Positions 1 to 13,430 of a stretch of DNA of 20,400 nt are shown here, one piece after another. Source of the DNA: a virus (taxonomy: Duplodnaviria; Heunggongvirae; Uroviricota; Caudoviricetes); the IMG/VR virus record IMGVR_UViG_2734482547_000016; one strand, written 5' to 3'. How positions within the stretch are numbered: the first letter of the stretch is position 1; each line of letters starts with the position of its first letter. The translations under genes and the position numbers were made by a program. Under the pieces are notes generated by a model. It was not told where the DNA came from. It made no database searches and was given only the letters and a program-made list of their open reading frames with translations.

Positions 1-393
1 ATTCAGGTTATGCCGCTCAATTCGCTGCGTATATCGCTTGCTGATTACGTGCAGCTTTCCCTTCAGGCGGGATTCATACAGCGGCCAGCCATCCGTCATC
101 CATATCACCACGTCAAAGGGTGACAGCAGGCTCATAAGACGCCCCAGCGTCGCCATAGTGCGTTCACCGAAGACGTGCGCCACAACCGTCCTCCGTATCC
201 TGTCATACGCGTAAAACAGCCAGCGCTGACGTGATTTAGCACCGACGTAGCCCCACTGTTCGTCCATTTCAGCGCAGACAATCACATCACTGCCCGGCTG
301 TATGCGCGAGGTTACCGACTGCGGCCTGAGTTTTTTAAGTGACGTAAAATCGTGTTGAGGCCAACGCCCATAATGCGGGCGGTTGCCCGGCAT
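1..393 (-). CDS. insB: IS1 InsB transposase, 3' end lies beyond the window start (partial)
   Basis: Reverse-strand translation from the window start gives ...[18 protein letters not shown], and upstream [29 protein letters not shown]..., matching IS1 InsB; it overlaps insA in a different frame as expected for the insAB' frameshift arrangement. Confidence 0.8.
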
Positions 394-587
394 CCAACAC
401 CATTCATGGCCATATCAATGATTTTCTGGTGTGTACCGGGTTGAGAAGCGGTGTAAGTGAACTGCAGTTGCCATGTTTTACGGCAGTGAGAGCAGAGATA
501 GCGCTGATGTCCGGCAGTACTTTTACCGTTACGCACCACGCCTTCAGTAGCTGAGCAGGAGGGACAACTGATGGAGATGGAAGCCAC
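312..587 (-). CDS. insA: IS1 InsA (transposition regulator, zinc-finger/HTH)
   Basis: 91-aa [46 protein letters not shown]... recognised as IS1 InsA; CxxC...CxxC motif present. Confidence 0.9.
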
Positions 588-1584: not shown

Positions 1585-2127
1585 TCAAGCCATTTTCTCA
1601 GCAAATGATTCACGCATGGGAATATATAGGGCATACTCAGCAACAGCTAACCAATTAGCAATCCGTTTTTCGCATGTGCTAAAACACCACTCTGGGTGTG
1701 CATCATTTAGCAATTCAGCCATTTTGCGCTTAGTCATCCCCCGCCCTTCATAGCGTTGCCGGAGAATGCAAATCAATCCTGGATGCTCTGCCAGCACCTC
1801 ACTTATGACTCGATCAATACATAACGCCTCTGCATCAGTACAATGCGCCAGCCAGCTCTTTTGCTTGCCGTTGATCATCTCTCGCAAAAACGCTTCCAGC
1901 TCAGCTTTCTCTATTCCCGCTTTTTTCATTCTGCGCAGGGCTTCATTAATGGCTGTTTTCGTCAGTTTTTTGGATGCCAACAACTGATTGAACATATTCC
2001 CTGACCTGCCACCGCCAATATACGACCAGCGCCCCCACATACGCAGTTTGCCCTGAATCCAGACACTTTCCAGCGTGGCGAGACGAAGGTGTTCTCCGCT
2101 TTTTCCTGTATTCGTTGGGTAAATCAC
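1585..2127 (-). CDS. Putative late-gene antiterminator (Q-like), copy A, 180 aa
   Basis: Last gene of the nin-like region, start overlapping the stop of a ybcO-like ORF (ATGA arrangement), followed by a short leader and strong terminator. Assigned from position and size; family not verified. Confidence 0.5.
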   Translation of the reverse strand: MIYPTNTGKSGEHLRLATLESVWIQGKLRMWGRWSYIGGGRSGNMFNQLLASKKLTKTAINEALRRMKKAGIEKAELEAFLREMINGKQKSWLAHCTDAEALCIDRVISEVLAEHPGLICILRQRYEGRGMTKRKMAELLNDAHPEWCFSTCEKRIANWLAVAEYALYIPMRESFAEKMA

Positions 2128-2233
2128 AAATATCCCTCCTTTCTCCAGATTTCTTGTGTGCGAAAAACACCTTCTGCATGCATCAGGCGTAATTCTTCTT
2201 TGGTGTAATCGCTGGTTTTTACCCGCCCGTCGA
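2124..2233 (-). CDS. YbcO-like (DUF1364-type putative nuclease) copy A, C-terminal fragment running into the N gap
   Basis: Translation ...DGRVKTSDYTKEELRLMHAEGVFRTQEIWRKEGYL is identical to the C-terminus of the complete ybcO-like ORF at 3004..3294. Confidence 0.6.
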
Positions 2234-2483
2234 NNNNNNNNNNNNNNNNNNNNNNNNNNNNNNNNNNNNNNNNNNNNNNNNNNNNNNNNNNNNNNNNNNN
2301 NNNNNNNNNNNNNNNNNNNNNNNNNNNNNNNNNNNNNNNNNNNNNNNNNNNNNNNNNNNNNNNNNNNNNNNNNNNNNNNNNNNNNNNNNNNNNNNNNNNN
2401 NNNNNNNNNNNNNNNNNNNNNNNNNNNNNNNNNNNNNNNNNNNNNNNNNNNNNNNNNNNNNNNNNNNNNNNNNNNNNNNNNNN
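2234..2483. other. Run of 250 N (assembly gap or masked sequence)
   Basis: Directly visible; interrupts ybcO-like copy A and the 3' end of Q-like copy B. Confidence 1.
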
Positions 2484-3007
2484 AAAGCCATAACCATTGG
2501 TTTGTACAAAATAAATTCTGCCACCTTTAGCCAATGCTCAATGCGTCTTTCACAGGTTCTTAAACTCCATTTCGGGTGTGCATCATTCAGCAGTTCAGCC
2601 ATTTTGCGTTTGGTCATCCCCCGCCCCTCATACCGTTGCCGAAGGACGCTAATCAATCCTGGATGCTCTGCCAGCACCTCACTTATGACCCGATCAATAC
2701 ATAACGCCTCTGCATCAGTACAATGCGCCAGCCAGCTCTTTTGCTTACCGTTAATCATATCCCGCAAAAAAGCCTCAAGTTCAGACTTGTTCAGACCTGC
2801 TTTTTTCATCCTCCGGAGCGCCTCGTTAATTGCCGTTTTTGTCAGCTTTTTAGAGGTCAACATCAGGTTAAACATATTCCCCGTCTTACCGCCACCAATA
2901 TACGACCAGCGCCCCCACATACGTAGTTTTCCCTGAATCCAGACACTTTCCAGCGTGGTGAGACGAAGGTGTTCTCCGCTTTTTCCTGTATTCGTTGGGT
3001 AAATCAT
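2484..3007 (-). CDS. Putative late-gene antiterminator (Q-like), copy B; 3' end lost in the N gap
   Basis: Start MIYPTNTGKSGEHLRL... at 3007 overlapping the ybcO-like stop; about 90% identical to copy A over the first ~145 aa by eye, but with a divergent C-terminal segment (…KWSLRTCERRIEHWLKVAEFILYKPMVMA… versus …EWCFSTCEKRIANWLAVAEYALYIPMRESFAEKMA). Confidence 0.5.
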
Positions 3008-3294
3008 AAATATCCCTCCTTTCTCCAGATTTCTTGTGTGCGAAAAACACCTTCTGCATGCATCAGGCGTAATTCTTCTTTGGTGTAATCGCTGGTTTTT
3101 ACCCGCCCGTCGATTAAATCGTGGCACGAGCTACAGGCAATCGCTGCCTGCATATCGTGTGGCTTTATCGCTGTTCCGCACGTTCCCGCCAGTCGGTAAT
3201 GCGCCAGCACAGACGTTTCCGGATCGTGATTGCAGTAGCCAGGAATTCTGACGGTGCACATCTGCCCCCGCGCCGCTTTACGTAAATCCACCAT
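3004..3294 (-). CDS. YbcO-like protein (DUF1364-type putative nuclease, Cys/His-rich), 96 aa
   Basis: MVDLRKAARGQMCTVRIPGYCNHDPETSVLAHYRLAGTCGTAIKPHDMQAAIACSSCHDLIDGR... resembles the DLP12 YbcO family as I recall it. The ORF track extends to 3375; the start was chosen by homology-consistent length. Confidence 0.65.
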   Translation of the reverse strand: MVDLRKAARGQMCTVRIPGYCNHDPETSVLAHYRLAGTCGTAIKPHDMQAAIACSSCHDLIDGRVKTSDYTKEELRLMHAEGVFRTQEIWRKEGYL

Positions 3295-3468
3295 TACGCA
3301 AACTCCAGTAGCTGCGCGGCCACATTTTCGACCTGTTCCGGAGAGGAAAATTTTCGGTACAGGATCCAGTTCCACAGCACATTCAGTACAGATTTATAAA
3401 CCTGCTGAAACTCGGTTTCCTCCATATTCGCAAACGCGATAGATTTCGCCCGACGCCCACGACTACCA

Positions 3469-3718
3469 NNNNNNNNNNNNNNNNNNNNNNNNNNNNNNNN
3501 NNNNNNNNNNNNNNNNNNNNNNNNNNNNNNNNNNNNNNNNNNNNNNNNNNNNNNNNNNNNNNNNNNNNNNNNNNNNNNNNNNNNNNNNNNNNNNNNNNNN
3601 NNNNNNNNNNNNNNNNNNNNNNNNNNNNNNNNNNNNNNNNNNNNNNNNNNNNNNNNNNNNNNNNNNNNNNNNNNNNNNNNNNNNNNNNNNNNNNNNNNNN
3701 NNNNNNNNNNNNNNNNNN
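3469..3718. other. Run of 250 N (assembly gap or masked sequence)
   Basis: Directly visible; removes most of the ybcN-like gene. Confidence 1.
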
Positions 3719-3901
3719 GTAATCGAATCCCAGTTGCAGGAGTTTGAAAAAACGCTTGTGGAATGCGTAGTTACGCACACGCTTAAAGTCTGCGTGTATC
3801 CACTCACCTATTTTGATTTGATGCAGAAAATCGCAACTCTCCGGCGTCGCCGGGAGAAGTAAACCAGAAGAAGTTTGTTTGACCAGTTGTATATGCGCCA
3901 T
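3719..3901 (-). CDS. YbcN-like (DUF1367-type) nin-region protein, N-terminal 61 aa only; the rest is in the N gap
   Basis: MAHIQLVKQTSSGLLLPATPESCDFLHQIKIGEWIHADFKRVRNYAFHKRFFKLLQLGFDY... resembles the N-terminus of lambdoid YbcN-family proteins. The ORF-track segment 3383..3468 is in frame only by coincidence of N counting. Confidence 0.55.
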
Positions 3902-4176
3902 TTCTCAATCTCTCGATGGCGCAGTGCAGCAGATGCCAGTTGTTCAGGCTGACGTATAAAGTATAAATAAACTGGTTCCAGTGTAAAGCCCCCACATTGA
4001 TGGAATAAAAATCAAACAATAGATTGCTGGGATAAAAATACAACGCTTATTATTAAAAGCGGTTAGACAAATTAAATTTTAATGTTATGCAAATCTGCCA
4101 GATTAGCATAATATCTCATTTGAAAACCGCTGAAATAACAATCTTACCAGGATTAATCATATTAAGGTGAGTAAAT

Positions 4177-4263
4177 ATGGAAAACAACAAATCTGCACAT
4201 TACGCTCCTTTTTTATCTGTAATACTTTTTGTATTTTGTTGTGTATGGGCGGTATTTTTATAA
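4177..4263 (+). CDS. Candidate small hydrophobic peptide (28 aa, one predicted transmembrane helix)
   Basis: MENNKSAHYAPFLSVILFVFCCVWAVFL; SD-like AAGGTGAG 6 nt upstream of the ATG; stop lies 14 nt before a strong intrinsic terminator. Below the ORF-track size cutoff. Confidence 0.3.
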   Translation: MENNKSAHYAPFLSVILFVFCCVWAVFL

Positions 4264-4276
4264 AACACACCCACAA

Positions 4277-4310
4277 ATAAATCAAACCCGCTACAGCGGG
4301 TTTGATTTAT
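4277..4310. terminator. Bidirectional intrinsic terminator (15-bp perfect stem ATAAATCAAACCCGC / GCGGGTTTGATTTAT, loop TACA)
   Basis: Immediately downstream of the S8 peptidase stop on the minus strand and of the small ORF on the plus strand; A/T-rich flanks. Confidence 0.7.
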
Positions 4311-4317
4311 ATAGTTG

Positions 4318-6582
4318 TTATACGGAAACTGGCACACGAGCAGGCAATGGATAGTGAGCCCAGTTATTAGCATTTAAAGCTCTTACGCCATCAGCATAAA
4401 CTTGTGTGTTTCCATCTAATGATTTTAAAGTTACTACAATAGTTACAGGTAAAGGCTCCATTAAGGCCGGTTCATTCGCTCTCAACGTTGTTTTAGCCTG
4501 AAGAGCCCAGTTACCCGAAGTAATTCCTTTATTAAATGCCTTGCGATGAATTTTTACTGGTGACCACTTTCCACCATGCTCAATTTGAGCTCTCTCATAT
4601 CCAGATTGACCGTTTTCTCCTTCCATAGGCACTTTTCCTTTTATAGTATTATTCTCAATTAAGCCAAAACTTAGCTCTACGTTCGCGCGAACATATTCAC
4701 TGCCGGCATTAGGGTTCAGTGGTGGTGCATATGCAGCAGTAATTACAATCTCACCTTTAAATTTTCCATTTTGAATAAGTGCCGATGGTATGGGATAGTT
4801 TTCCTTTCTCCACCTCACCCCAGGAACCAAGAATGTTTGGAAAATCAGAGTAAACCTATCATCACTATCATATAAGGTCTCAATAACTTCATTAGGAATT
4901 CCCGCTCCCAAATAGCGTCTTTCACTTGGCGAGTAATCAGGAGAAGATAATTGAGCGGAATGAATTAATAATGCTTTAATCAATGATGGTGAAACATTAA
5001 AGTCTGAATTAGTGGCTATTCTCTGCCATGTATGCGCAGCTAAACTTGCCACAATTGGAGCAGCAAAACTAGTACCAAAATTAGAGCAAAGCCTATTATC
5101 TGGCCCTACGACCTTTAAACTGCTTGCTCCTACATTCCAAGGTCTATGAACCCCACCGCCAGCATGGATTATATCTGGCTTTGGAGTAAATACAGGCCCA
5201 GGGCCACGACGAGTATATGGTGTCGGTGTTCCAATTTCACTTAAAGCATCATTAGCTTCCATATGAGAAACTGAACCAACTGTTAGTGCTCGGACTGACT
5301 CTCCAGGAGAGGAAATTAAATCAGCACCTCCAAGCGGATCAGGATTTGGCCATGTACGTATAGGTTCATCTACATAATTACCTGCAGCAACTACAAACAA
5401 AATACCAAATTTATCGCTGAGTCGATCTAACTCCATCGCAAAATCACTAAACGTCTGCTCATTACATGGTCCGCCTCCCAAAGACAAATTCCAGACTTTT
5501 ATATCTGGTCTTTTATTTACAGCATCTGCTAGCCTCAGAATTAAATCTGATATATAAGATCCATTTTCATCTAAAGCACAAACATCATGGATTTTAGATT
5601 TTGTATCAGGAATCCATGGATGATTGTCATTTAAAAAATGAGCGCCTGATATCAATGAAGACACCATAGTCCCATGTTCATAACTCGTATCAGGAGGAAT
5701 TACGTATGTTTCCCTACTCACTACCCAAGGAGTAATTGTTGCCGCGATGGGGCTTACCCCAGTGTCAAATACAGCAACAATGGGTAATTCTTCTGATGGT
5801 ACGGGAAAGCTATTTGTTTCAATGCCAACAGAATCACTTACACTAACCGGGAATGCTGAATATTTTGGTTCTGGAATTAACGTTCTTATACCCGGGTAAT
5901 CAATGAGAATGTCTAATATATATCTATCATTTGGGGATAAATCCATTATCCTTAATAAGGGAAGACCACATTTTTGTCTAATCTCATCATATTTAACTCC
6001 GTGTTGTTCTAATATAGAAATAACGTTTTCATAGTTGTTGTAAGTTGCATCTTCACCTGTGTACTCAAATAGTCGTACAAGGATGTTTGATGATTCAAAC
6101 AAACCATCAGTGCCTCCTGGAACCTTCCTATTCTCATCCCAAGGTTCAATGCGCTCAATCGCGCTTAGATTAGCCAAAATCGCTTTAATATTCCGATGTA
6201 AAATGACTGACTCTAATACGTCAAAACAGCCGGCATGAGCAGCAACCAACATTTCATCTATTTTGGCATGACCGGCATTTTGCAATCCAGCATCTTGAGC
6301 AATTTTGTTCGGCCTATGCGTTTTGGCTATTCCCTGGTCTCTTAATTTGAAAACCAAAGTACCCAAGCTTCCAGGGTACTCTGAAAGTTTGGATTCTAAA
6401 TAATGTTTACTGGTTGTTAAATTTCTTACTAGCCCTTGTCTATATTCGGCTGTTACATCAACCAATACCTTTGCCCCACCGCCAGCGTTTACTATTGCAC
6501 CCAAGTCACTACTGGAAAAAGGGATTCTTAACATTGGGTTTGTAACTTTTGCGTTACTAAACTGTGTACCCCTTCTGCTCAT
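4318..6582 (-). CDS. Subtilisin-like S8 serine peptidase, 754 aa, no signal peptide, with long N- and C-terminal extensions
   Basis: Asp-His-Ser order with canonical motifs: VAVFDTG (Asp273), HGTMVSS (His303), AAGN oxyanion Asn (about 402), GTSFAAP (Ser505). N-terminus is hydrophilic. SD AGGAG upstream; start overlaps the upstream ATPase ORF by 26 nt. Confidence 0.85.
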   Translation of the reverse strand: MSRRGTQFSNAKVTNPMLRIPFSSSDLGAIVNAGGGAKVLVDVTAEYRQGLVRNLTTSKHYLESKLSEYPGSLGTLVFKLRDQGIAKTHRPNKIAQDAGLQNAGHAKIDEMLVAAHAGCFDVLESVILHRNIKAILANLSAIERIEPWDENRKVPGGTDGLFESSNILVRLFEYTGEDATYNNYENVISILEQHGVKYDEIRQKCGLPLLRIMDLSPNDRYILDILIDYPGIRTLIPEPKYSAFPVSVSDSVGIETNSFPVPSEELPIVAVFDTGVSPIAATITPWVVSRETYVIPPDTSYEHGTMVSSLISGAHFLNDNHPWIPDTKSKIHDVCALDENGSYISDLILRLADAVNKRPDIKVWNLSLGGGPCNEQTFSDFAMELDRLSDKFGILFVVAAGNYVDEPIRTWPNPDPLGGADLISSPGESVRALTVGSVSHMEANDALSEIGTPTPYTRRGPGPVFTPKPDIIHAGGGVHRPWNVGASSLKVVGPDNRLCSNFGTSFAAPIVASLAAHTWQRIATNSDFNVSPSLIKALLIHSAQLSSPDYSPSERRYLGAGIPNEVIETLYDSDDRFTLIFQTFLVPGVRWRKENYPIPSALIQNGKFKGEIVITAAYAPPLNPNAGSEYVRANVELSFGLIENNTIKGKVPMEGENGQSGYERAQIEHGGKWSPVKIHRKAFNKGITSGNWALQAKTTLRANEPALMEPLPVTIVVTLKSLDGNTQVYADGVRALNANNWAHYPLPARVPVSV

Positions 6583-7711
6583 ATGCTCCTGACTCCTTCA
6601 GAATGTTTGAAATTACTCTTGATGTAAGTTTGTACAAATTAGCAAGAACTCTGATAGAAAATAATTTTTTATCTTTAGAACGTAACCAACGAATTTCATC
6701 TTCGTAAGTGCTTAAATTTACACCTTCCATAAGCGATTGAGCAAGATACAAACGCCTATACAATTTATGGTGATTTATCACACTTGCACCTTCAATAACT
6801 GCATCCCTACGTGCATCCAAGCTCACCTGTTCAATTATTGCTCCGGATAATCCTTCCGATTTTCTTGATAAATCACTTAAATCTAGATCGCAACATATCA
6901 TATTCTTTAAACGATTTTTCCAAATTAACTCTCTCTGATGTATGTCAGGCAGAGGCATTGGAATTCTGAAGCTAAATCGCCTCCAGATTGCAGGATCCAG
7001 AAGTTGCTCATGGTTAGTTGAGGCAATAATTACCGTATCCTCTGATGCCGCATCCATATTCTGCAATAGTGAAATGACAACTCGCTGAAGCTCACCTATA
7101 TCTCTCTCATTACCTCTTGCTCCAGCTAAAGCATCAAATTCGTCTAAAAAAAGCACTGATGGCCTCTGCATTACATAATCGAAAACCTGTCTAAGATTTT
7201 TGCTGGTTTGTCCCAATAAACTACTAATCAAAGTATCGCAACGCACTGTAAGAAGTGGAAAATCTAAGCGGGTAGCGATGTACTTAGATAACATAGTCTT
7301 ACCTGTTCCTGGCTTTCCATACACGAGCATACGACTCGGCAATGCTGCATCAGCTTTAACAAACTCATCATAACGTTGAACATTAGTGATAAACTCTTCA
7401 ACACGGGTACTGATTGCTGCAGGCAGAAAAATCTCTGAACTGTCTAATTTAGGATAACTGACATCAACAGTGTTGAGTCGACTATCAATATCTACCGGTA
7501 ATGAGCCCAGAGATATCCCACCTCCAGCCCTTTGAGCTCCTGCCAACGCCTGGGGAGCTCTAAGCAACCTTTCTCTTATCATTCTGGCTTGCTTGACCTC
7601 CCCTTTTTGTTCGAGCTTATCTGCCAGCAACCCAGCATAATTACTAGCCATCGAAGCATTTGCCTTTGTTGCACCTTCAATGATTTTTAACACTTCTGAT
7701 AAATAATCCAT
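6557..7711 (-). CDS. AAA+ ATPase, 384 aa
   Basis: Walker A GKPGTGKT (aa 132-139), Walker B VLFLDEFD (aa 186-193), downstream IIASTN sensor-1-like motif; no TM segment; translationally coupled to the peptidase gene. Confidence 0.85.
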   Translation of the reverse strand: MDYLSEVLKIIEGATKANASMASNYAGLLADKLEQKGEVKQARMIRERLLRAPQALAGAQRAGGGISLGSLPVDIDSRLNTVDVSYPKLDSSEIFLPAAISTRVEEFITNVQRYDEFVKADAALPSRMLVYGKPGTGKTMLSKYIATRLDFPLLTVRCDTLISSLLGQTSKNLRQVFDYVMQRPSVLFLDEFDALAGARGNERDIGELQRVVISLLQNMDAASEDTVIIASTNHEQLLDPAIWRRFSFRIPMPLPDIHQRELIWKNRLKNMICCDLDLSDLSRKSEGLSGAIIEQVSLDARRDAVIEGASVINHHKLYRRLYLAQSLMEGVNLSTYEDEIRWLRSKDKKLFSIRVLANLYKLTSRVISNILKESGAYEQKGYTV

Positions 7712-7904
7712 TCAACACTCCCACAACAAAAAGCCACAGCAATCAAAAAATGAGCACGCAGAATCAAAATACTCTCTAATCGTAACGCATTTTGAGATTT
7801 TTGATACGTTTTTTTGGGATTATGTAACGCCAAATGGTCATTTTGTGTCAGAAAAATAAATCTTAGTACCGAGAATATGTAGCTTCCATCCTTCATCGTT
7901 CTAT

Positions 7905-8336
7905 TCATCCCTGATCTCCAAGCCTCTCTCGAAAACCATTCTGATAAAACGCCAGCACACGCTGCATAACTTCACTCTTCCGGCACTCGCGACAGATTAT
8001 GTTCAGACGCCTGTCGTAGCGGCGTATTTCTCCGTCTGGTAATGACCAGATAAGGTCCGGATCAACCACAGATGGTTTCTTCACCTTTGCCCTGGATAGT
8101 TTTTTGCGGGCATTTTGCCAGTCCTTACGAGCCTGTTCAGACGGGAATAACCCGTAACCAGAGTTGTATACATCGCCACTGGCAACCAGCTCTCTGGCGA
8201 GAACGCTCATCAGATATCTTGTCGCACCTGTCTTGGCCTCCAGTTGTCGTAACGTCTCGCGTCCACTCCGGCGTACTAGCTCAACAACCTGCCCTTTAAT
8301 TTTTTCCCGCTCTTCTTGTGTAAATACTTTTGCCAT
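7905..8336 (-). CDS. Hypothetical phage protein, about 143 aa
   Basis: ORF with GGAGG 5 nt upstream of ATG (MAKVFTQEEREKIKGQVVELVRRSG...); basic and charged. The ORF-track start at 8351 is a TTG; the ATG at 8336 is preferred. Confidence 0.5.
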   Translation of the reverse strand: MAKVFTQEEREKIKGQVVELVRRSGRETLRQLEAKTGATRYLMSVLARELVASGDVYNSGYGLFPSEQARKDWQNARKKLSRAKVKKPSVVDPDLIWSLPDGEIRRYDRRLNIICRECRKSEVMQRVLAFYQNGFRERLGDQG

Positions 8337-8351
8337 AAGCGCCTCCGGCAA

Positions 8352-9113
8352 TCACTTTTCCGATACAACACGGCGGGAAGAATCAGCAATCTGTCGAACA
8401 ATATCCCGGTGCTTGTTCAGCTCCCGCAGCGCGGCGCAGACTCGCTCCCACTTCTGGACATGATTTTTCGCCCGACGCAGTTCGCGGTTTGCCATATGCA
8501 GCGATGGCAAAATCAGGTCATCAGCTCGCGTTTCAGTAAACGATGGCAGCGACTGCACAATGTCCGCCACAGTTTCTGTTTTAATATCTTCCTGTGTTGC
8601 CGCTTCCTGTACTGGTAACGCAACACCGGCTGGCTGAGGAAAGGTTTTACCATCAGTTTCCGTTACCGATGCAGCTTTCGGCTCTGCTGGTAAATCATCG
8701 CCCGGCATGCAGTAACGAAATTTACCGTTCTGATTAACGCGAAGCAGACGACCTTTGCTGATTGCCATTGCCAGCGTTGAAGCCACTTTGCGTGATGTGG
8801 TACCAAACAATGTAGCCAGCTCATCCGCCGTTTGTGGTCCACGTTGTTCAATCGTCGCAGTTAAATCGCTCTCTGAAATTTTCGCGACTGTTGCCGTGGT
8901 AGTTTCTTCCGGCAGTTCTGCCGGCGCTGGCTGTTCCTGCTGAACGTTGTTATCAGCCACACGCCAGGTGTACGCGCTTTTATCAACGAAACCAGCCTTT
9001 TTCAGTTCCCATAGTTCGTTCAGCACTTCTTCACGACTGATATCAAGTCGCGCAGCAAGTTCTATGGATGTGGCTTTTCCCATTGCTTTCAGTACGTCAA
9101 AAACAGTCTCCAT
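8352..9113 (-). CDS. Hypothetical phage protein with a probable N-terminal winged-helix DNA-binding domain (possibly DUF1627-type)
   Basis: [44 protein letters not shown]... looks like a wHTH; an acidic Pro/Glu-rich linker follows; SD GGGAGA upstream of the ATG at 9113. Sits just downstream of the DnaC-like gene as in other lambdoid prophages. Confidence 0.55.
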
Positions 9114-9135
9114 TAAATTTTTCTCCCGGTAAAAA

Positions 9136-9882
9136 TTACTTCGCAATTCCTGGCTGGACGACATTCGGACGCCAGCTCTCCCAGTTGAAATTCACCCATC
9201 GCCCGCCGTTCATGGTCATGCGATCCATAATCCGCTCGCCAAGCAATGTTTTCATGGCCTCATAGTTCAGGTTTGTCAGCATCCCCACGCTGCGCATCGA
9301 CGCTGTCCGGCGATCAACAATCTGGTGCAGCACCACCTGCTCGTTTTTCGTCTCGCGCTGAATGCCAATTTCATCAAGAACCAGCAGATCCACTTCGCAC
9401 AGTTCCCGCAAAAATTTTTCGCCTGACTGCCCGTCGTCATAGCTGGCGTGCAGGGCACTCATAACATCAGCCACGGTAACCACAATCACTGTCTGACCGT
9501 CTTTCAGCAGGCGATTCCCGATAGCTGCCGCTAAGTGGTTCTTCCCGGTACCAGGTTTTCCGCTGAACGCAAAATTTGTACACCCGGTCATCAGTTCATC
9601 AGCGATGGATTTCGCCTGACTCAACGCGTATCGCTGCCCTTCGTTCTGCACCTGGTAATTCGAAAACGAGCATTTGCGGTGCAATGGCTGGATGCCAGAG
9701 CGATTCAGAATTTTTTCCACCCGCAACTGACGATTCTGACGGTTGATCTCCTCACAACGTTTCTGGCCTTCGGAAAGTTGCCACTCGCGCCACTCCGCTA
9801 CCGTCTTGAATGGCGCGGTTACATGTGACGGGGCCAGTCTGCGGATACGTTCAAGAACGTCGCCTGTCGCAATATTTTTCAT
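9136..9882 (-). CDS. ydaV: DnaC/IstB-family replicative helicase loader (P-like), 248 aa
   Basis: Walker [16 protein letters not shown] and Walker B LLVLDEIG; same length and position as Rac YdaV (recollection). Confidence 0.75.
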
Positions 9883-9888
9883 GGTCAG

Positions 9889-10677
9889 TTACCCCCTGAA
9901 GCCTGGCGGGATCGCACTATCCGGTAACGAGACGGTGTTAACCTGTCGGAGTAACGTCTCAGGTCGAACACCTTTCGGCGCGAACAAGCCCTGGTATTCG
10001 TTGGCGATGCTGTGTCGAATCACCTGCTCAGGTGAAAAACCCTGCTGGCGGAATTTTTCCAGCTCCCGTATCGCCCCGTTAGCGCCCTGCTCCGTTCGAA
10101 TCGGTTTTCGCAATGCCTGCCTGAACTGAACCCACTCATGCCAGAGTGTTTCCGGCAACCAGTCAGGCAGCTCGATAGCCTCCGGTTCGAATTTTTTAGA
10201 CGCTCGTTTTTGGCGAGGGGGATTTAGGGGGAGATAAGTATTTATATCTTCCTCTTTCTCTTCCTCTGGTAACGCTTTTTGATCCGTTTTTGTAACGCTG
10301 GCAGCGTTACCTTTTCGTTTCAGTTCTCGTATTTTTGTTACTCTCTCGTTTGTAACCGCCCGTTTTTTAGAGCTTTTCCCGTTATGGCGCTCAAAGTTAG
10401 GAAGCGACAACACACCATTAGTTTCGACCAGCCATCCAACCTGAATTAACGCATCAGCAAAACCAGCCATAAAAGTGATGCGATCTATTGCACTTTTTGT
10501 AACGCCGCGAGCGTTACACTCTGCGTTACCGTCTATCATTTGTTGATCCGCCCATGCCCAGAAGCGAATGACTTTCCCTAATGCGGCATCTGGATCAATA
10601 TTCAGAATCTCAGCAAGCCTGAATATTTCCGGCTTATCCGGCGTAATAACCTCGAGCTTTATCCAGTTTGAAGCCAT
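9889..10677 (-). CDS. Replication initiation protein (YdaU-like, O-like role), 262 aa
   Basis: Immediately upstream of the DnaC-like gene (6-nt spacing); SD AGGTGA; contains and is preceded by iteron-like palindromes; central low-complexity basic/acidic linker. Confidence 0.6.
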   Translation of the reverse strand: MASNWIKLEVITPDKPEIFRLAEILNIDPDAALGKVIRFWAWADQQMIDGNAECNARGVTKSAIDRITFMAGFADALIQVGWLVETNGVLSLPNFERHNGKSSKKRAVTNERVTKIRELKRKGNAASVTKTDQKALPEEEKEEDINTYLPLNPPRQKRASKKFEPEAIELPDWLPETLWHEWVQFRQALRKPIRTEQGANGAIRELEKFRQQGFSPEQVIRHSIANEYQGLFAPKGVRPETLLRQVNTVSLPDSAIPPGFRG

Positions 10678-10710
10678 TTGTTTTCACCTTGTAACGCTCG
10701 CAGCGTTACA
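10268..10710. repeat. Iteron-like palindromic repeats, consensus TGTAACGC-N3-5-GCGTTACA (3 full palindromes plus half-sites)
   Basis: Full copies at 10291..10310 (TGTAACGCTGGCAGCGTTAC), 10498..10518 (TGTAACGCCGCGAGCGTTACA) and 10690..10710 (TGTAACGCTCGCAGCGTTACA); half-sites at about 10268, 10351 and 10523. Two lie inside the ydaU-like coding region, one just upstream of its SD. Confidence 0.6.
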
Positions 10711-10754
10711 TTTAACTGATACCGAACAAAACAGTTCGGTACGATTAATTTCAA

Positions 10755-11177
10755 TCAATGCACTACGACAGAATCGCTAGGAGAACCGCCGCCGCTGAAA
10801 TGTGCTTTACGGTAAACGGCCTGGACTGCATCATCATGCGCATCAATTGCCGTACTCAGTGCATCCTGTGCCGCCAGTAATGCACGGCGTTCCAGGGTAT
10901 CGAAGATGCAGAGTCGGTGACGCAGCTCGCGAGGAAGAATTGCCAGAACCGCAGGGATCAGTTTCTGAATTTTTTCCCTTTGCGCATTCGTTTCACCTTT
11001 CAACCAACGATGATAGATATTCTGCTGATTGTTCCAGTCCTTGCCTGGTACCAGGGGCAATTCGCCGCCCCCCTGGCGCAGATATTCTTCAGTAATTGCG
11101 TTAGCGACCCACGCCTGCCCTTTTTCGGCTGCCAGGGCTAACAACACTGATTCGATGTGCTCATGCTTGATTTTCAT
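10755..11177 (-). CDS. ydaT: YdaT-like protein (CII-analogue regulator of Rac-type prophages), 140 aa
   Basis: MKIKHEHIESVLLALAAEKG... resembles Rac YdaT (recollection); start overlaps the stop of the Cro-like gene (ATGA). Confidence 0.6.
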   Translation of the reverse strand: MKIKHEHIESVLLALAAEKGQAWVANAITEEYLRQGGGELPLVPGKDWNNQQNIYHRWLKGETNAQREKIQKLIPAVLAILPRELRHRLCIFDTLERRALLAAQDALSTAIDAHDDAVQAVYRKAHFSGGGSPSDSVVVH

Positions 11178-11428
11178 GAATCAACTCCCATCAGCTTTTT
11201 CGTAGTAGTTTTATTTCTGCCAATAGTTAAAATTGCATCGGCAGAAAATAATCCGTTTGATGCATGAGCGATTTTTTCAGCGTAATTTGTTTCGCCGGTA
11301 TATTCTGTGCGAGGCAATTTTCCGTTATCCATCCATTTGTAGATTGCTCTTTGGCTGACACCACAAACGTCGGCCACAACAGAAACGCGAACAGTTTTGA
11401 TTACATCTTCAAGTGTTTTCTGGTTCAT
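11174..11428 (-). CDS. Cro-like HTH regulator (YdaS-like), about 84 aa
   Basis: HTH-like segment VSVVADVCGVSQRAIYKWMDNGKLP; SD GAGGA before the ATG at 11428; divergent from the repressor gene. The ORF-track start at 11500 would overlap the repressor promoter, so the internal start is preferred. Confidence 0.6.
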   Translation of the reverse strand: MNQKTLEDVIKTVRVSVVADVCGVSQRAIYKWMDNGKLPRTEYTGETNYAEKIAHASNGLFSADAILTIGRNKTTTKKLMGVDS

Positions 11429-11507
11429 ATCATCCTCACAATGTGAACTTTGAGTACATGCTATAACAGAACTGACAGTACATTCAAGAGCGAATATCAT
11501 TGAACTT
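11429..11507. promoter_or_regulatory. OR-like divergent promoter/operator region between the repressor and the Cro-like gene
   Basis: 79-bp intergenic region between divergent regulators; two direct AGTACAT motifs (11453..11459, 11477..11483). Confidence 0.5.
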
Positions 11508-11927
11508 ATGGTTCATGAAGATAAAGCGCGTAAAGAGTTCGCCAGTAGGCTTGCGCTAGCCTGTGAAAACGCTGGTTATGAACAACATGGAAGGCAGGCA
11601 GAAATTGCCCGTCGAATGAAATTAACACCAAAAGCGGTTAGCAAATGGTTTAATGGTGAAACAATTCCTCGCCGAGAGAAATTAAGGGAATTAGCAACAC
11701 TCATTGGAACAACACCAACCTATCTTTTGGGAGAGGATACAGAAGAAAGTGGACAGATACGTTTCTATCAGGAGTTAAATCCAAGACAAAAAATCATCAT
11801 TGACCTTCTGGACGAGCTCCCTGACAGTGAGACAGATGAACTTTTAAAAACTCTTGAGGAGAAAAAACAGAAGTACAATGCAATTTACGAAGAGTTAGCA
11901 CGAAAGAAAAAACAAAAAGCCTCTTAA
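11508..11927 (+). CDS. Prophage repressor, XRE-family HTH (RacR-like), 139 aa
   Basis: HTH segment QAEIARRMKLTPKAVSKWFNGETIPRREKLRELATLIG; no S24 peptidase domain; C-terminal charged coiled-coil-like tail; divergent from the Cro-like gene. Confidence 0.7.
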   Translation: MVHEDKARKEFASRLALACENAGYEQHGRQAEIARRMKLTPKAVSKWFNGETIPRREKLRELATLIGTTPTYLLGEDTEESGQIRFYQELNPRQKIIIDLLDELPDSETDELLKTLEEKKQKYNAIYEELARKKKQKAS

Positions 11928-12359: not shown

Positions 12360-12515
12360 ATGCAAAAAATCGACCTCGGCAACAACGAATCCATGGTGTG
12401 CGGCGTGTTCCCCAACCAAGATGGAACGTTCACTGCTATGACGTATACCAAAAGCAAAACATTTAAAACCGAAACTGGTGCGCGCCGATGGTTGGAGAAG
12501 CACACAGTAAACTAA
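12360..12515 (+). CDS. ydaF: Small prophage protein (YdaF-like, DUF1391-type), 51 aa
   Basis: MQKIDLGNNESMVCGVFPNQDGTFTAMTYTKSKTFKTETGARRWLEKHTVN resembles Rac YdaF (recollection); stop overlaps the convergent sieB stop. Confidence 0.55.
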   Translation: MQKIDLGNNESMVCGVFPNQDGTFTAMTYTKSKTFKTETGARRWLEKHTVN

Positions 12516-13000
12516 CGATTAAAACGTCTACTCCTGCTGTTCCAGAATAACTTCATAAAATGGGAGTATTTTTCGGTGACGAGATAATAAGAACAGTTTG
12601 CGCTATCACTCTGATGTTGAATGATGCCCTTCCGTTCTAATTTTTTCATAACCGGGTTACGGCAAGGAGAAGTGATAATAAGATTTCCTGTTTTAAGGAA
12701 ATCTTTAAATACAGCTATTTCTTTCTCAGATAAACGAAGCAATACTCGTTGCTCTGGTAGTAATGAATAATGCTTTTGAATATGTGCTCGCAATCTTGAG
12801 AAGGAAATGGCGACCACGAAAGAAAAGGCAAAAACGATAATCTGAAAGAGCCAAGGTATTTCAGTATAAGCATTGAATGCGACAGTAAACTCTTTCGGTA
12901 TCAGCCAGAGAGTGAGACCAAAAATGATAATCGTATACATAAGTCTTTCGAGTGGCTCGTTAGCAAAAAGTTTCAACAATGGAGTAAATACATCCAACAT
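12512..13000 (-). CDS. sieB: Superinfection exclusion protein B (SieB), membrane protein, 162 aa
   Basis: MLDVFTPLLKLFANEPLERLMYTIIIFGLTLWLIPKEFTVAFNAYTEIPWLFQIIVFAFSFVV... matches SieB of Rac/lambda as recalled; hydrophobic N-terminal half. The ORF-track start at 13123 is an upstream extension. Confidence 0.8.
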   Translation of the reverse strand: MLDVFTPLLKLFANEPLERLMYTIIIFGLTLWLIPKEFTVAFNAYTEIPWLFQIIVFAFSFVVAISFSRLRAHIQKHYSLLPEQRVLLRLSEKEIAVFKDFLKTGNLIITSPCRNPVMKKLERKGIIQHQSDSANCSYYLVTEKYSHFMKLFWNSRSRRFNR

Positions 13001-13430
13001 ATCAATAACTCTCAACTGTAAGGGTATTGAAATGTTAACACAAGCTCTCGCTGTAGGGGTATAGCCGAGACCACCGAAGCCCGGAGGTGGTGAAATAAAA
13101 CTGGGCGCAACACGAAGGCGCATTTCCGATATCCATAAAGAGTCGGTCTTGTCTGTTAAATTTAAATGGTGGGAGTGCGCCTCCGGTTGTAAATAACGAC
13201 ATTGCTGTGTGTAGTCTTGGCGGCATCAGTTTTTTCTTGAAGTTCGGCTGATGTCCGCCCTTTTTAAAGTGAATTTTGTGATGCGGTGAATGCGGCTAAG
13301 CGCACGCGGAACAGTTAAAAGCATCAGTGTTATGGGGGGATTATCCGGCGTTAATTGTTAACTGGTTAACGTCACCTGGAGGCACCAGGCACCGCATCAA
13401 CAAGGTTCATTTGTGAAAATGGAGATAATT

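Follow-up and report, generated by a model that had tools for sequence, protein, structure and literature searches.

The subject of this report is a low-GC island at positions 3902..7904 of a 20,400-nucleotide stretch of viral DNA (Caudoviricetes; IMG/VR virus record IMGVR_UViG_2734482547_000016), which as a whole is referred to here as the window. We are confident that the island holds an intact cassette of the anti-phage system IetAS, and that a Rac-like lambdoid prophage has this cassette as accessory cargo; the slot that it occupies is hypervariable and lies between a replication block (an O-like gene, a DnaC-like gene, ydaW and lygF) and a nin/Q block (DUF1367, ybcO and Q). An earlier sequence-only reading of the window had described an ATPase and a protease gene on a horizontally acquired moron with its own promoter and terminator. 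The two genes were rightly seen in that reading, but it missed that they are the known IetAS (IteAS) pair.

The IetAS genes and the composition of the island

The upstream gene, ietA (iteA; 6557..7711, minus strand), encodes a 384-amino acid AAA+ ATPase that would be the regulator or antitoxin component, and ietS (iteS; 4318..6582, minus strand) encodes a 754-amino acid S8 subtilisin-like serine protease that would be the effector or toxin component. IetA matches the PADLOC model IetA PDLC02196 (E 3.1e-142) and the NCBIfam equivalog IteA_antiphage, NF042959, at 524.8 bits against a cut-off of 510 and with model positions 1-367 of 367 covered; the Pfam AAA domain (E 2.6e-30) is at residues 128-253. 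IetS matches the PADLOC model IetS PDLC02197 (E 7e-301) and the NCBIfam equivalog IteS_antiphage, NF042956 ('S8 family anti-phage peptidase IteS'), at 1043.4 bits against a cut-off of 900, and its Pfam Peptidase_S8 domain is at residues 268-544. The Walker A (GKPGTGKT at 132) and Walker B (VLFLDE at 186) motifs of IetA are intact, and the Asp-His-Ser triad of IetS is present as D273 (FDTG), H303 (EHGT) and S505 (GTSFAAP). In RefSeq, identical DNA carries the names iteA and iteS ('anti-phage ATPase IteA').

The two genes are co-oriented and overlap by 26 nucleotides; another possible ietS start, M17 (6534), would leave a 22-nucleotide gap to ietA instead of an overlap. The gene order is the same in a copy from Citrobacter that is described below. 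Known IetAS (IteAS) systems share the two-gene architecture and the order of the genes, both proteins match their models end to end and the catalytic motifs are intact. There is no substantive difference from these systems; for example, there is no extra helicase, unlike in the ietHAS variant (PMC13069673). As judged from these matches, the island is a complete copy of a system that is already catalogued as IetAS or, under its NCBI name, IteA/IteS. For the purpose of annotation, the low-GC island is accounted for by this catalogued defence system and no further discovery effort is needed. The locus also offers no new handle on the substrate of the IetAS protease or on its phage sensor.

The composition of the island differs from that of its neighbors. 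With the masked runs of N left out, the GC content of 3902..7904 is 39.1%, as compared to 47.1% in the left flank and 49.6% in 7905..11500, and the 4003-bp segments with the lowest GC in the whole 20.4-kb sequence begin at 3901-3951. The island genes have 39-40% GC versus 47-53% in the surrounding phage genes, and the GC content of third codon positions (GC3) is 26.9% for ietS and 31.9% for ietA versus 45-62% in the adjacent replication and nin genes. A synonymous-codon chi-square between the island and the flanking genes is 328 (41 degrees of freedom), and the control, in which the flanks were compared with each other, gives 79. CTG makes up 8% of the Leu codons in the island and 48% in the flanks, and AGA plus AGG make up 62% of the Arg codons in the island and 10% in the flanks. 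The spacers on the two sides of the genes are 416 bp (3902..4317) and 193 bp (7712..7904) long and both are AT-rich (34-35% GC); the other same-operon gene pairs on the minus strand are separated by -29 to +77 bp.

The sequence-only reading had called the ATPase and protease genes AT-rich by eye and had remarked on long gaps that are unlike the tight packing on either side, and both statements are borne out by these figures. It had also named an absence of difference in GC and codon usage as a result that would speak against it; when computed, both differ clearly from the neighboring phage genes. Low GC is not confined to the ietAS island, given that a similarly AT-rich composition, with 39-40% GC, is seen in the immunity region, which includes cro, repressor and sieB and spans about 11.2-13.2 kb. 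The window is masked by two runs of exactly 250 N each, at 2234..2483 and 3469..3718, and the apparent GC troughs at about these positions are artefacts of the masked runs. The same runs break up the Q and DUF1367 genes.

Distribution, junctions and the exchange slot

It is well supported that the ietAS pair is horizontally acquired accessory cargo and not a core phage module, because of its distribution, its carriage by a phage, the alternative cargo between the same flanks and its presence in a second host. In a survey of 5,426 complete Escherichia coli genomes, the cassette DNA (4303..7940) was found in only 78, whereas a query containing the flanks (lygF and DUF1367 DNA) matched about 4,250, mostly at 90-95% identity. 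In all 78 genomes the cassette is single-copy, chromosomal and at least 99.6% identical, and it adjoins the DUF977 gene (lygF). Flank identity varies from 90 to 99%, while the ietAS copies are near-identical. The cassette block is also present, at 98.3% identity, in a deposited phage genome record, vB_EcoS-683R6. The plasmid collection that was searched has no ietAS; its only two matches were to the left spacer, and both were in records that are really chromosomes. Horizontal acquisition, as the sequence-only reading had proposed, agrees with these counts. The same reading had named the presence of the genes at this position in all related prophages, as core genes, as a further result that would speak against it; related phages that share the flanks carry other genes.

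The second host is Citrobacter freundii. A metagenome-assembled genome (MAG) of this species has an ietAS copy with 81% nucleotide identity, only over 7833..4318, and its IetA is 90% identical at the amino acid level. The prophage that carries this copy is of the YdaS/YdaT/DnaT/DnaC/PerC type; a DUF977 gene immediately precedes ietAS there, and the flanks are without DNA homology to those in the window. The copy has 41.5% GC, as compared to 48.6% in its upstream neighbors.

One E. coli copy is interrupted. In strain F2_81 (NZ_CP043542.1 2590971..2596964) an IS3-family transposase is inside the block, and the match is in two pieces with a span that is about 1.3 kb longer. This split copy may be inactivated.

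The alignments place the edges of the cassette fairly exactly. On the right, homology with phages that lack IetAS (L001 and L003) restarts only at 7941, within lygF, and the C-terminal tails of LygF diverge past ...VLAFYQ. By this alignment the last 12 lygF codons (7905..7940) belong to the variable segment, and the recombination edge is within these codons. The right junction segment (7834..7940, minus strand) is found in E. coli IetAS prophages only, with no megablast match beyond the 78 IetAS genomes. On the left, homology with Rac from strain 442/2 ends at 3901, with phage 666R9 at 4264 and with many genomes at 4291-4302. The limits of the Citrobacter homology are exactly the ietS stop codon (4318) and 7833. 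Taken from these limits, the cassette is about 4311..7940 and its transferable core is 4318..7833.

The alignment with related prophages that the sequence-only reading had suggested as a way to define the junctions thus gave values for both of them, about 4311 and 7940, but it did not define a simple insertion site. When the joined flanks (3719..3901 plus 7905..8700) were compared with the E. coli genomes as a model of the empty site, in none did the two flanks lie less than about 1 kb apart; the right flank alone gave a match as one unit, and this in the 78 genomes already mentioned, and the search yielded neither a simple insertion site nor a target duplication. Since lygF and DUF1367 are nowhere closer than about 1 kb in these genomes, the interval is a replacement slot rather than the site of an insertion into an empty site. 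In addition, the proposal that the island is bounded by two spacers of its own did not hold, because the left spacer is part of the backbone and is present in 1,367 genomes, most of which are without IetAS.

Two other explanations of the island were considered along with these results, and both are contradicted by the evidence. One is that the low GC reflects a functional or regional constraint on an ancestral core phage module and not horizontal acquisition. The similar GC of the cro, repressor and sieB region would agree with such a constraint; however, ietAS is absent from most of the related prophages that have both flanks, its copies are near-identical over a range of flank identities, and the Citrobacter copy, with unrelated flanks, is likewise AT-rich relative to its upstream neighbors. 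We give this explanation next to no chance. The other is that all of 3902..7904, including both spacers, is one moron with its own promoter and terminator that was inserted into a once-contiguous lygF-DUF1367 junction. Such a unit would explain why both spacers are AT-rich, why a strong hairpin follows ietS and why the homology with Rac of strain 442/2 ends exactly at 3901. However, the left spacer occurs in 1,367 genomes as compared to 78 for ietAS, and it runs to 4264-4302 in phages and genomes without ietAS; the Citrobacter copy shares only 4318..7833; and no genome brings lygF and DUF1367 within about 1 kb, the shortest cargo seen being 1.4 kb. A single inserted unit therefore has a very slim chance of being correct.

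Morons, a concept of the Hendrix laboratory, are independently transcribed accessory genes located between the backbone genes of lambdoid phages. The IetAS cassette is like a moron in that it is between two backbone genes, is absent from relatives, has a deviant composition, is oriented with the operon and is followed by a hairpin. It is unlike a moron in that there is no sigma-70 consensus match upstream, that the hairpin seems to be resident backbone and that the site is an exchange slot for many cargos, not the place of a single empty-site insertion.

The contents of the slot in other prophages display a varied pattern. For example, phages 666R9, 673R7 and 613R10 (vB_EcoS-666R9 etc.) have the same flanks and carry between them a KilA-N/DNA-binding protein and hypothetical proteins. 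In Rac of strain 442/2 these flanks enclose HP1-5, hok/mok and rem instead. We compared the slot among IMG/VR prophage contigs that have both lygF and the left spacer element with its small open reading frame (ORF), which is described below. Between this ORF and lygF, the interval is a constant 3,732 bp in the 9 loci with IetAS, and it ranges from 1.4 to 8.2 kb in the 56 loci without IetS, which fall into 26 length classes with 103 ORF clusters. The most frequent neighbor in the slot is hokD.

Several of the slot proteins match defense models in PADLOC, including PD-T7-3 (E 3.5e-168), RmrA (E 6e-107), a Tmn-like KAP NTPase (E 7e-57), component C of PD-Lambda-2 (E 6.5e-41), a ThsA-like SIR2 protein (E 9e-32), AbiH (E 2e-27) and an adenosine deaminase that adjoins the SIR2 protein (E 1e-35). 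The lygF-to-nin/Q interval is therefore put forward as a candidate defense and toxin hotspot of Rac-like lambdoid prophages. Defense hotspots of P2-like phages and P4-like satellites (PMC9122126) are alike in having a fixed position between conserved phage genes and alternating defense and toxin systems; they differ in that the slot described here belongs to the Rac-like lambdoid family and is positioned between lygF/DUF977 and the nin/Q genes. Loci with other slot cargo are L022, L027, L033, L035, L070, L077, L086, L094, L097, L103 and L109. Some large slot proteins have no PADLOC match or a weak partial one, for example those of L077 (834 amino acids), L035 (932), L109 (752) and L070 (649) and a pair in L027. 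The slot is a place to seek uncharacterized systems.

The right spacer and the proposed function

The right spacer is between ietA and lygF (7905..8336, minus strand), the upstream backbone gene at the edge of the slot. This gene is in the position of lambda ren, matches Pfam DUF977 (E 2e-28) and is named LygF or DUF977 in related phages and in RefSeq; an N-terminal alignment indicates that the ATG at 8336 is its likely start. The part of the spacer next to ietA, made up of the 122 nucleotides upstream of the ietA ATG, is a conserved 5' leader or regulatory region (7712..7833, minus strand), which travels with ietAS and has a Shine-Dalgarno sequence (SD), GGGAG, 7 nucleotides before the ATG. 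Between E. coli and Citrobacter, 7833..7760 is conserved above the level of the coding sequence, and it includes two direct GCGTTAC repeats about 42 nucleotides apart. This block might serve as an operator or as a promoter of an unconventional kind. Shuffled sequences fold about as stably as the leader RNA does (z +0.31).

It might also be supposed that the right spacer encodes a third component of the system. A 73-amino acid ORF at 7687..7908 has a start that overlaps the lygF stop (ATGA) and an end that overlaps the ietA start. A 73-codon open frame is uncommon by chance in DNA with 35% GC, and some records call the ORF, as a 'kinase (Fragment)' in ON470595 and as a hypothetical protein in E. 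coli and Shigella. However, the Prokaryotic Genome Annotation Pipeline (PGAP) leaves it uncalled in most of the RefSeq copies and it has no family match. In Citrobacter its N-terminal third is without homology, the frame is interrupted by two 1-nucleotide indels and every ORF there is shorter than 50 amino acids. A third component has a slim chance, and we judge the ORF to be spurious as a gene on account of the missing family match and the lack of conservation in Citrobacter.

The function of IetAS has been described in other settings. The pair was first found as a plasmid-stabilization module in which IetS is a protease toxin and IetA an ATPase antitoxin, and it protects against phage in a manner that needs the protease activity (PMC13069673). 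Its description as a defense system is credited to Gao et al. 2020 in PMC13069673 and bioRxiv 10.1101/2022.08.27.505566. The second of these reports that a Bacillus cereus homologue acts by abortive infection, which is triggered when a single phage protein is expressed. The location of ietAS on a prophage in E. coli has also been recorded (bioRxiv 10.1101/2022.08.21.504612).

If the copy in the window acts as this literature would suggest, IetS would be a toxic effector that is held back by the antitoxin-like IetA. A phage protein made in the course of an infection would free the toxicity, and the cell would stop growing or die before the phage cycle is completed. In a lysogen, the cassette would presumably guard the host, and the prophage with it, from superinfection by other phages. 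Transcription of ietAS might come from a weak non-consensus promoter in the 122-bp leader or from read-through out of the early rightward operon, and it would stop at a resident hairpin at 4277..4310.

Some observations weigh against the interpretation of the island as an acquired anti-phage cassette. With regard to the donor lineage of the AT-rich cassette, a scan of genome contigs for IetA gave a single relative, the Citrobacter freundii MAG. A standard scan and a relaxed custom scan, with E. coli and Citrobacter compared, found no sigma-70 consensus promoter upstream of ietA in 7712..7904 or in the Citrobacter equivalent; a promoter of its own, which the sequence-only reading had proposed for the island, is no more than plausible, and what travels with the genes is the conserved 122-bp leader. 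The data on the trigger and on abortive infection are from the Bacillus cereus homologue and not from the E. coli variant, and protection, toxicity and lysogen expression are all inferred for the copy in the window.

The alternative that is closest to the proposed function is that ietAS is mainly a toxin-antitoxin addiction module, which would stabilize the prophage by post-segregational killing, and not a phage defense. It draws on the first description of IetAS as a stabilization pair on a plasmid and on the frequent presence in the slot of hokD, another addiction-type toxin. However, anti-phage activity has been validated for the IetAS family, along with a phenotype of abortive infection, and the slot also hosts dedicated defense genes, such as PD-T7-3, AbiH and RmrA. 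We regard a mainly addictive role as rather unlikely; addiction and defense are not mutually exclusive.

The left spacer and the rest of the prophage

The left spacer has a different history from that of the cassette. Of its 1,367 matches to 3902..4317 among the complete genomes, 1,153 have at least 80% coverage, and no RefSeq feature lies beneath it. The element occurs with varied downstream nin modules (DUF1367/YbcO/Q or DUF968/RusA/Q) and with varied upstream cargo; it is not in the Qin prophage of K-12, the K-12 prophage that was looked at. By these associations, 3902 to about 4302 is a prophage backbone element and is outside the ietAS island.

The best-conserved block of the element (3937..3996, minus strand) has a column conservation of 0.89-0.94 over 50 distinct copies. 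It contains a promoter-like TTTACA-16-TATACT (3987 to 3960; score 10/12) that points towards the DUF1367/YbcO/Q genes, and the block is kept where the downstream genes differ, e.g., in L005. A second conserved block is at 4037..4096.

The two spacers had been described as non-coding, which is too simple. The ORF in the right spacer is judged to be spurious, but in the left spacer there is a conserved ORF of 28 codons on the plus strand, MENNKSAHYAPFLSVILFVFCCVWAVFL (4177..4266), which has a strong SD, AAGGTGAG, is unannotated and belongs to the backbone element and not to the cassette. Loci with this ORF were retrieved by a pattern that covers only the first 41 nucleotides and leaves the third positions of codons 1-13 free. 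It is intact at exactly 28 codons in all of the 123 loci retrieved, which represent 13 DNA variants. The variable sites at the three codon positions number 6/6/17, a ratio that is inflated by the retrieval pattern, and 5/4/8 in codons 15-28, which are outside the pattern. The ORF is kept, with synonymous changes, in copies that are only 78% identical. These patterns are suggestive of coding constraint. An exact look-up of the variants of the 28-amino acid peptide in the protein collection found all of them to be absent, probably because gene callers skip such short ORFs, and the peptide has no family match. Two other ORFs in the left spacer, 4200..4373 and 3804..4043 (both minus strand), were treated as mechanical ORFs.

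The hairpin that follows ietS (4277..4310) has a 15-bp stem with a G+C core and begins 7 nucleotides past the ietS stop. Its fold is -26.0 kcal/mol on the minus strand (z -5.3) and -22.3 kcal/mol on the plus strand (z -6.0), and none of 200 shuffles was as stable. The hairpin is a probable bidirectional terminator for ietS and the convergent 28-codon ORF. It is probably resident, because a homologous hairpin follows the 28-codon ORF in prophages without IetAS, and for this reason the idea that the island brought its own terminator is doubtful. In Citrobacter a hairpin with a similar core is located 48 nucleotides past ietS, and given this likeness an imported origin is a less likely alternative. 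An Rfam scan of 3300..8400 at a permissive E-value gave two sub-threshold, chance-level matches, both on the hairpin (NrrF, 25 bits versus 60, and a Leu leader).

The toxins of type I toxin-antitoxin systems include small hydrophobic peptides of the hok, tisB, shoB, ibs and ldr classes. The 28-codon ORF is like them in that its product has fewer than 30 amino acids, a polar N-terminus and a single hydrophobic helix at the C-terminal end. The ORF also has a strong SD and a hairpin terminator of its own, and a promoter-like match in the antisense orientation (4183 to 4156) spans its start codon. The ORF is unlike these toxins in that it has no sequence or Rfam family match; in addition, diverged copies do not keep a putative antisense terminator at 4061..4044. 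Its product could be a type I toxin-like peptide or else a small protein of the membrane.

Taken together, these features lead to a tentative proposal, to which we give somewhat less than an even chance. The left spacer, about 400 bp of unannotated DNA in about a quarter of the complete E. coli genomes, may encode a 28-residue membrane peptide, possibly one that is regulatory or resembles type I toxins, with a hairpin terminator of its own, and may mark the fixed downstream edge of a defense and toxin hotspot; the leader with the GCGTTAC repeats could be an autoregulatory operator of IetAS. What is possibly new in the window is confined to such side observations, that is, the 28-codon ORF in the backbone element and the slot for defense cargo beside it.

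As judged from its gene content, the element that hosts the cassette is a Rac-like lambdoid prophage. Upstream of lygF on the minus strand are ydaW/DUF1627 (8352..9164), the DnaC-like gene (9136..9882), the O-like gene (9889..10677), YdaT (10755..11177) and a cro/YdaS-like helix-turn-helix (HTH) gene (11174..11500). A repressor-like HTH gene (11508..11927) is on the plus strand, with sieB, recE, recT and the integrase on the same side. The first backbone gene downstream of the slot, on the nin/Q side, is DUF1367 (irsA-like; 3383..3901, minus strand; Pfam DUF1367 E 1.5e-26), which is a 'DUF1367 family protein' in RefSeq and is N-masked at 3469..3718. It is followed by ybcO (3004..3375, minus strand) and then by Q/DUF1133.

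The Q antiterminator gene (DUF1133/Phage_antitermQ) is present in two tandem copies on the minus strand, at 1585..2127 and about 2484..3007. Each copy is preceded by a ybcO 3' end, with near-identical stretches at about 1990..2233 and 2870..3113. The copies are 84% identical over 300 nucleotides with a period of 880 bp, and the run of N between them hides the junction of the duplication. Just past the Q genes is an IS1 InsA gene (Zn_ribbon_InsA plus HTH_Tnp_IS1; 312..587, minus strand), which suggests that the late region of the prophage is interrupted or truncated by IS1. On the other side of the window, the AT-rich immunity region includes a gene for the superinfection-exclusion protein SieB (12512..13123, minus strand), which brings the exclusion or defense functions of the prophage to at least two.

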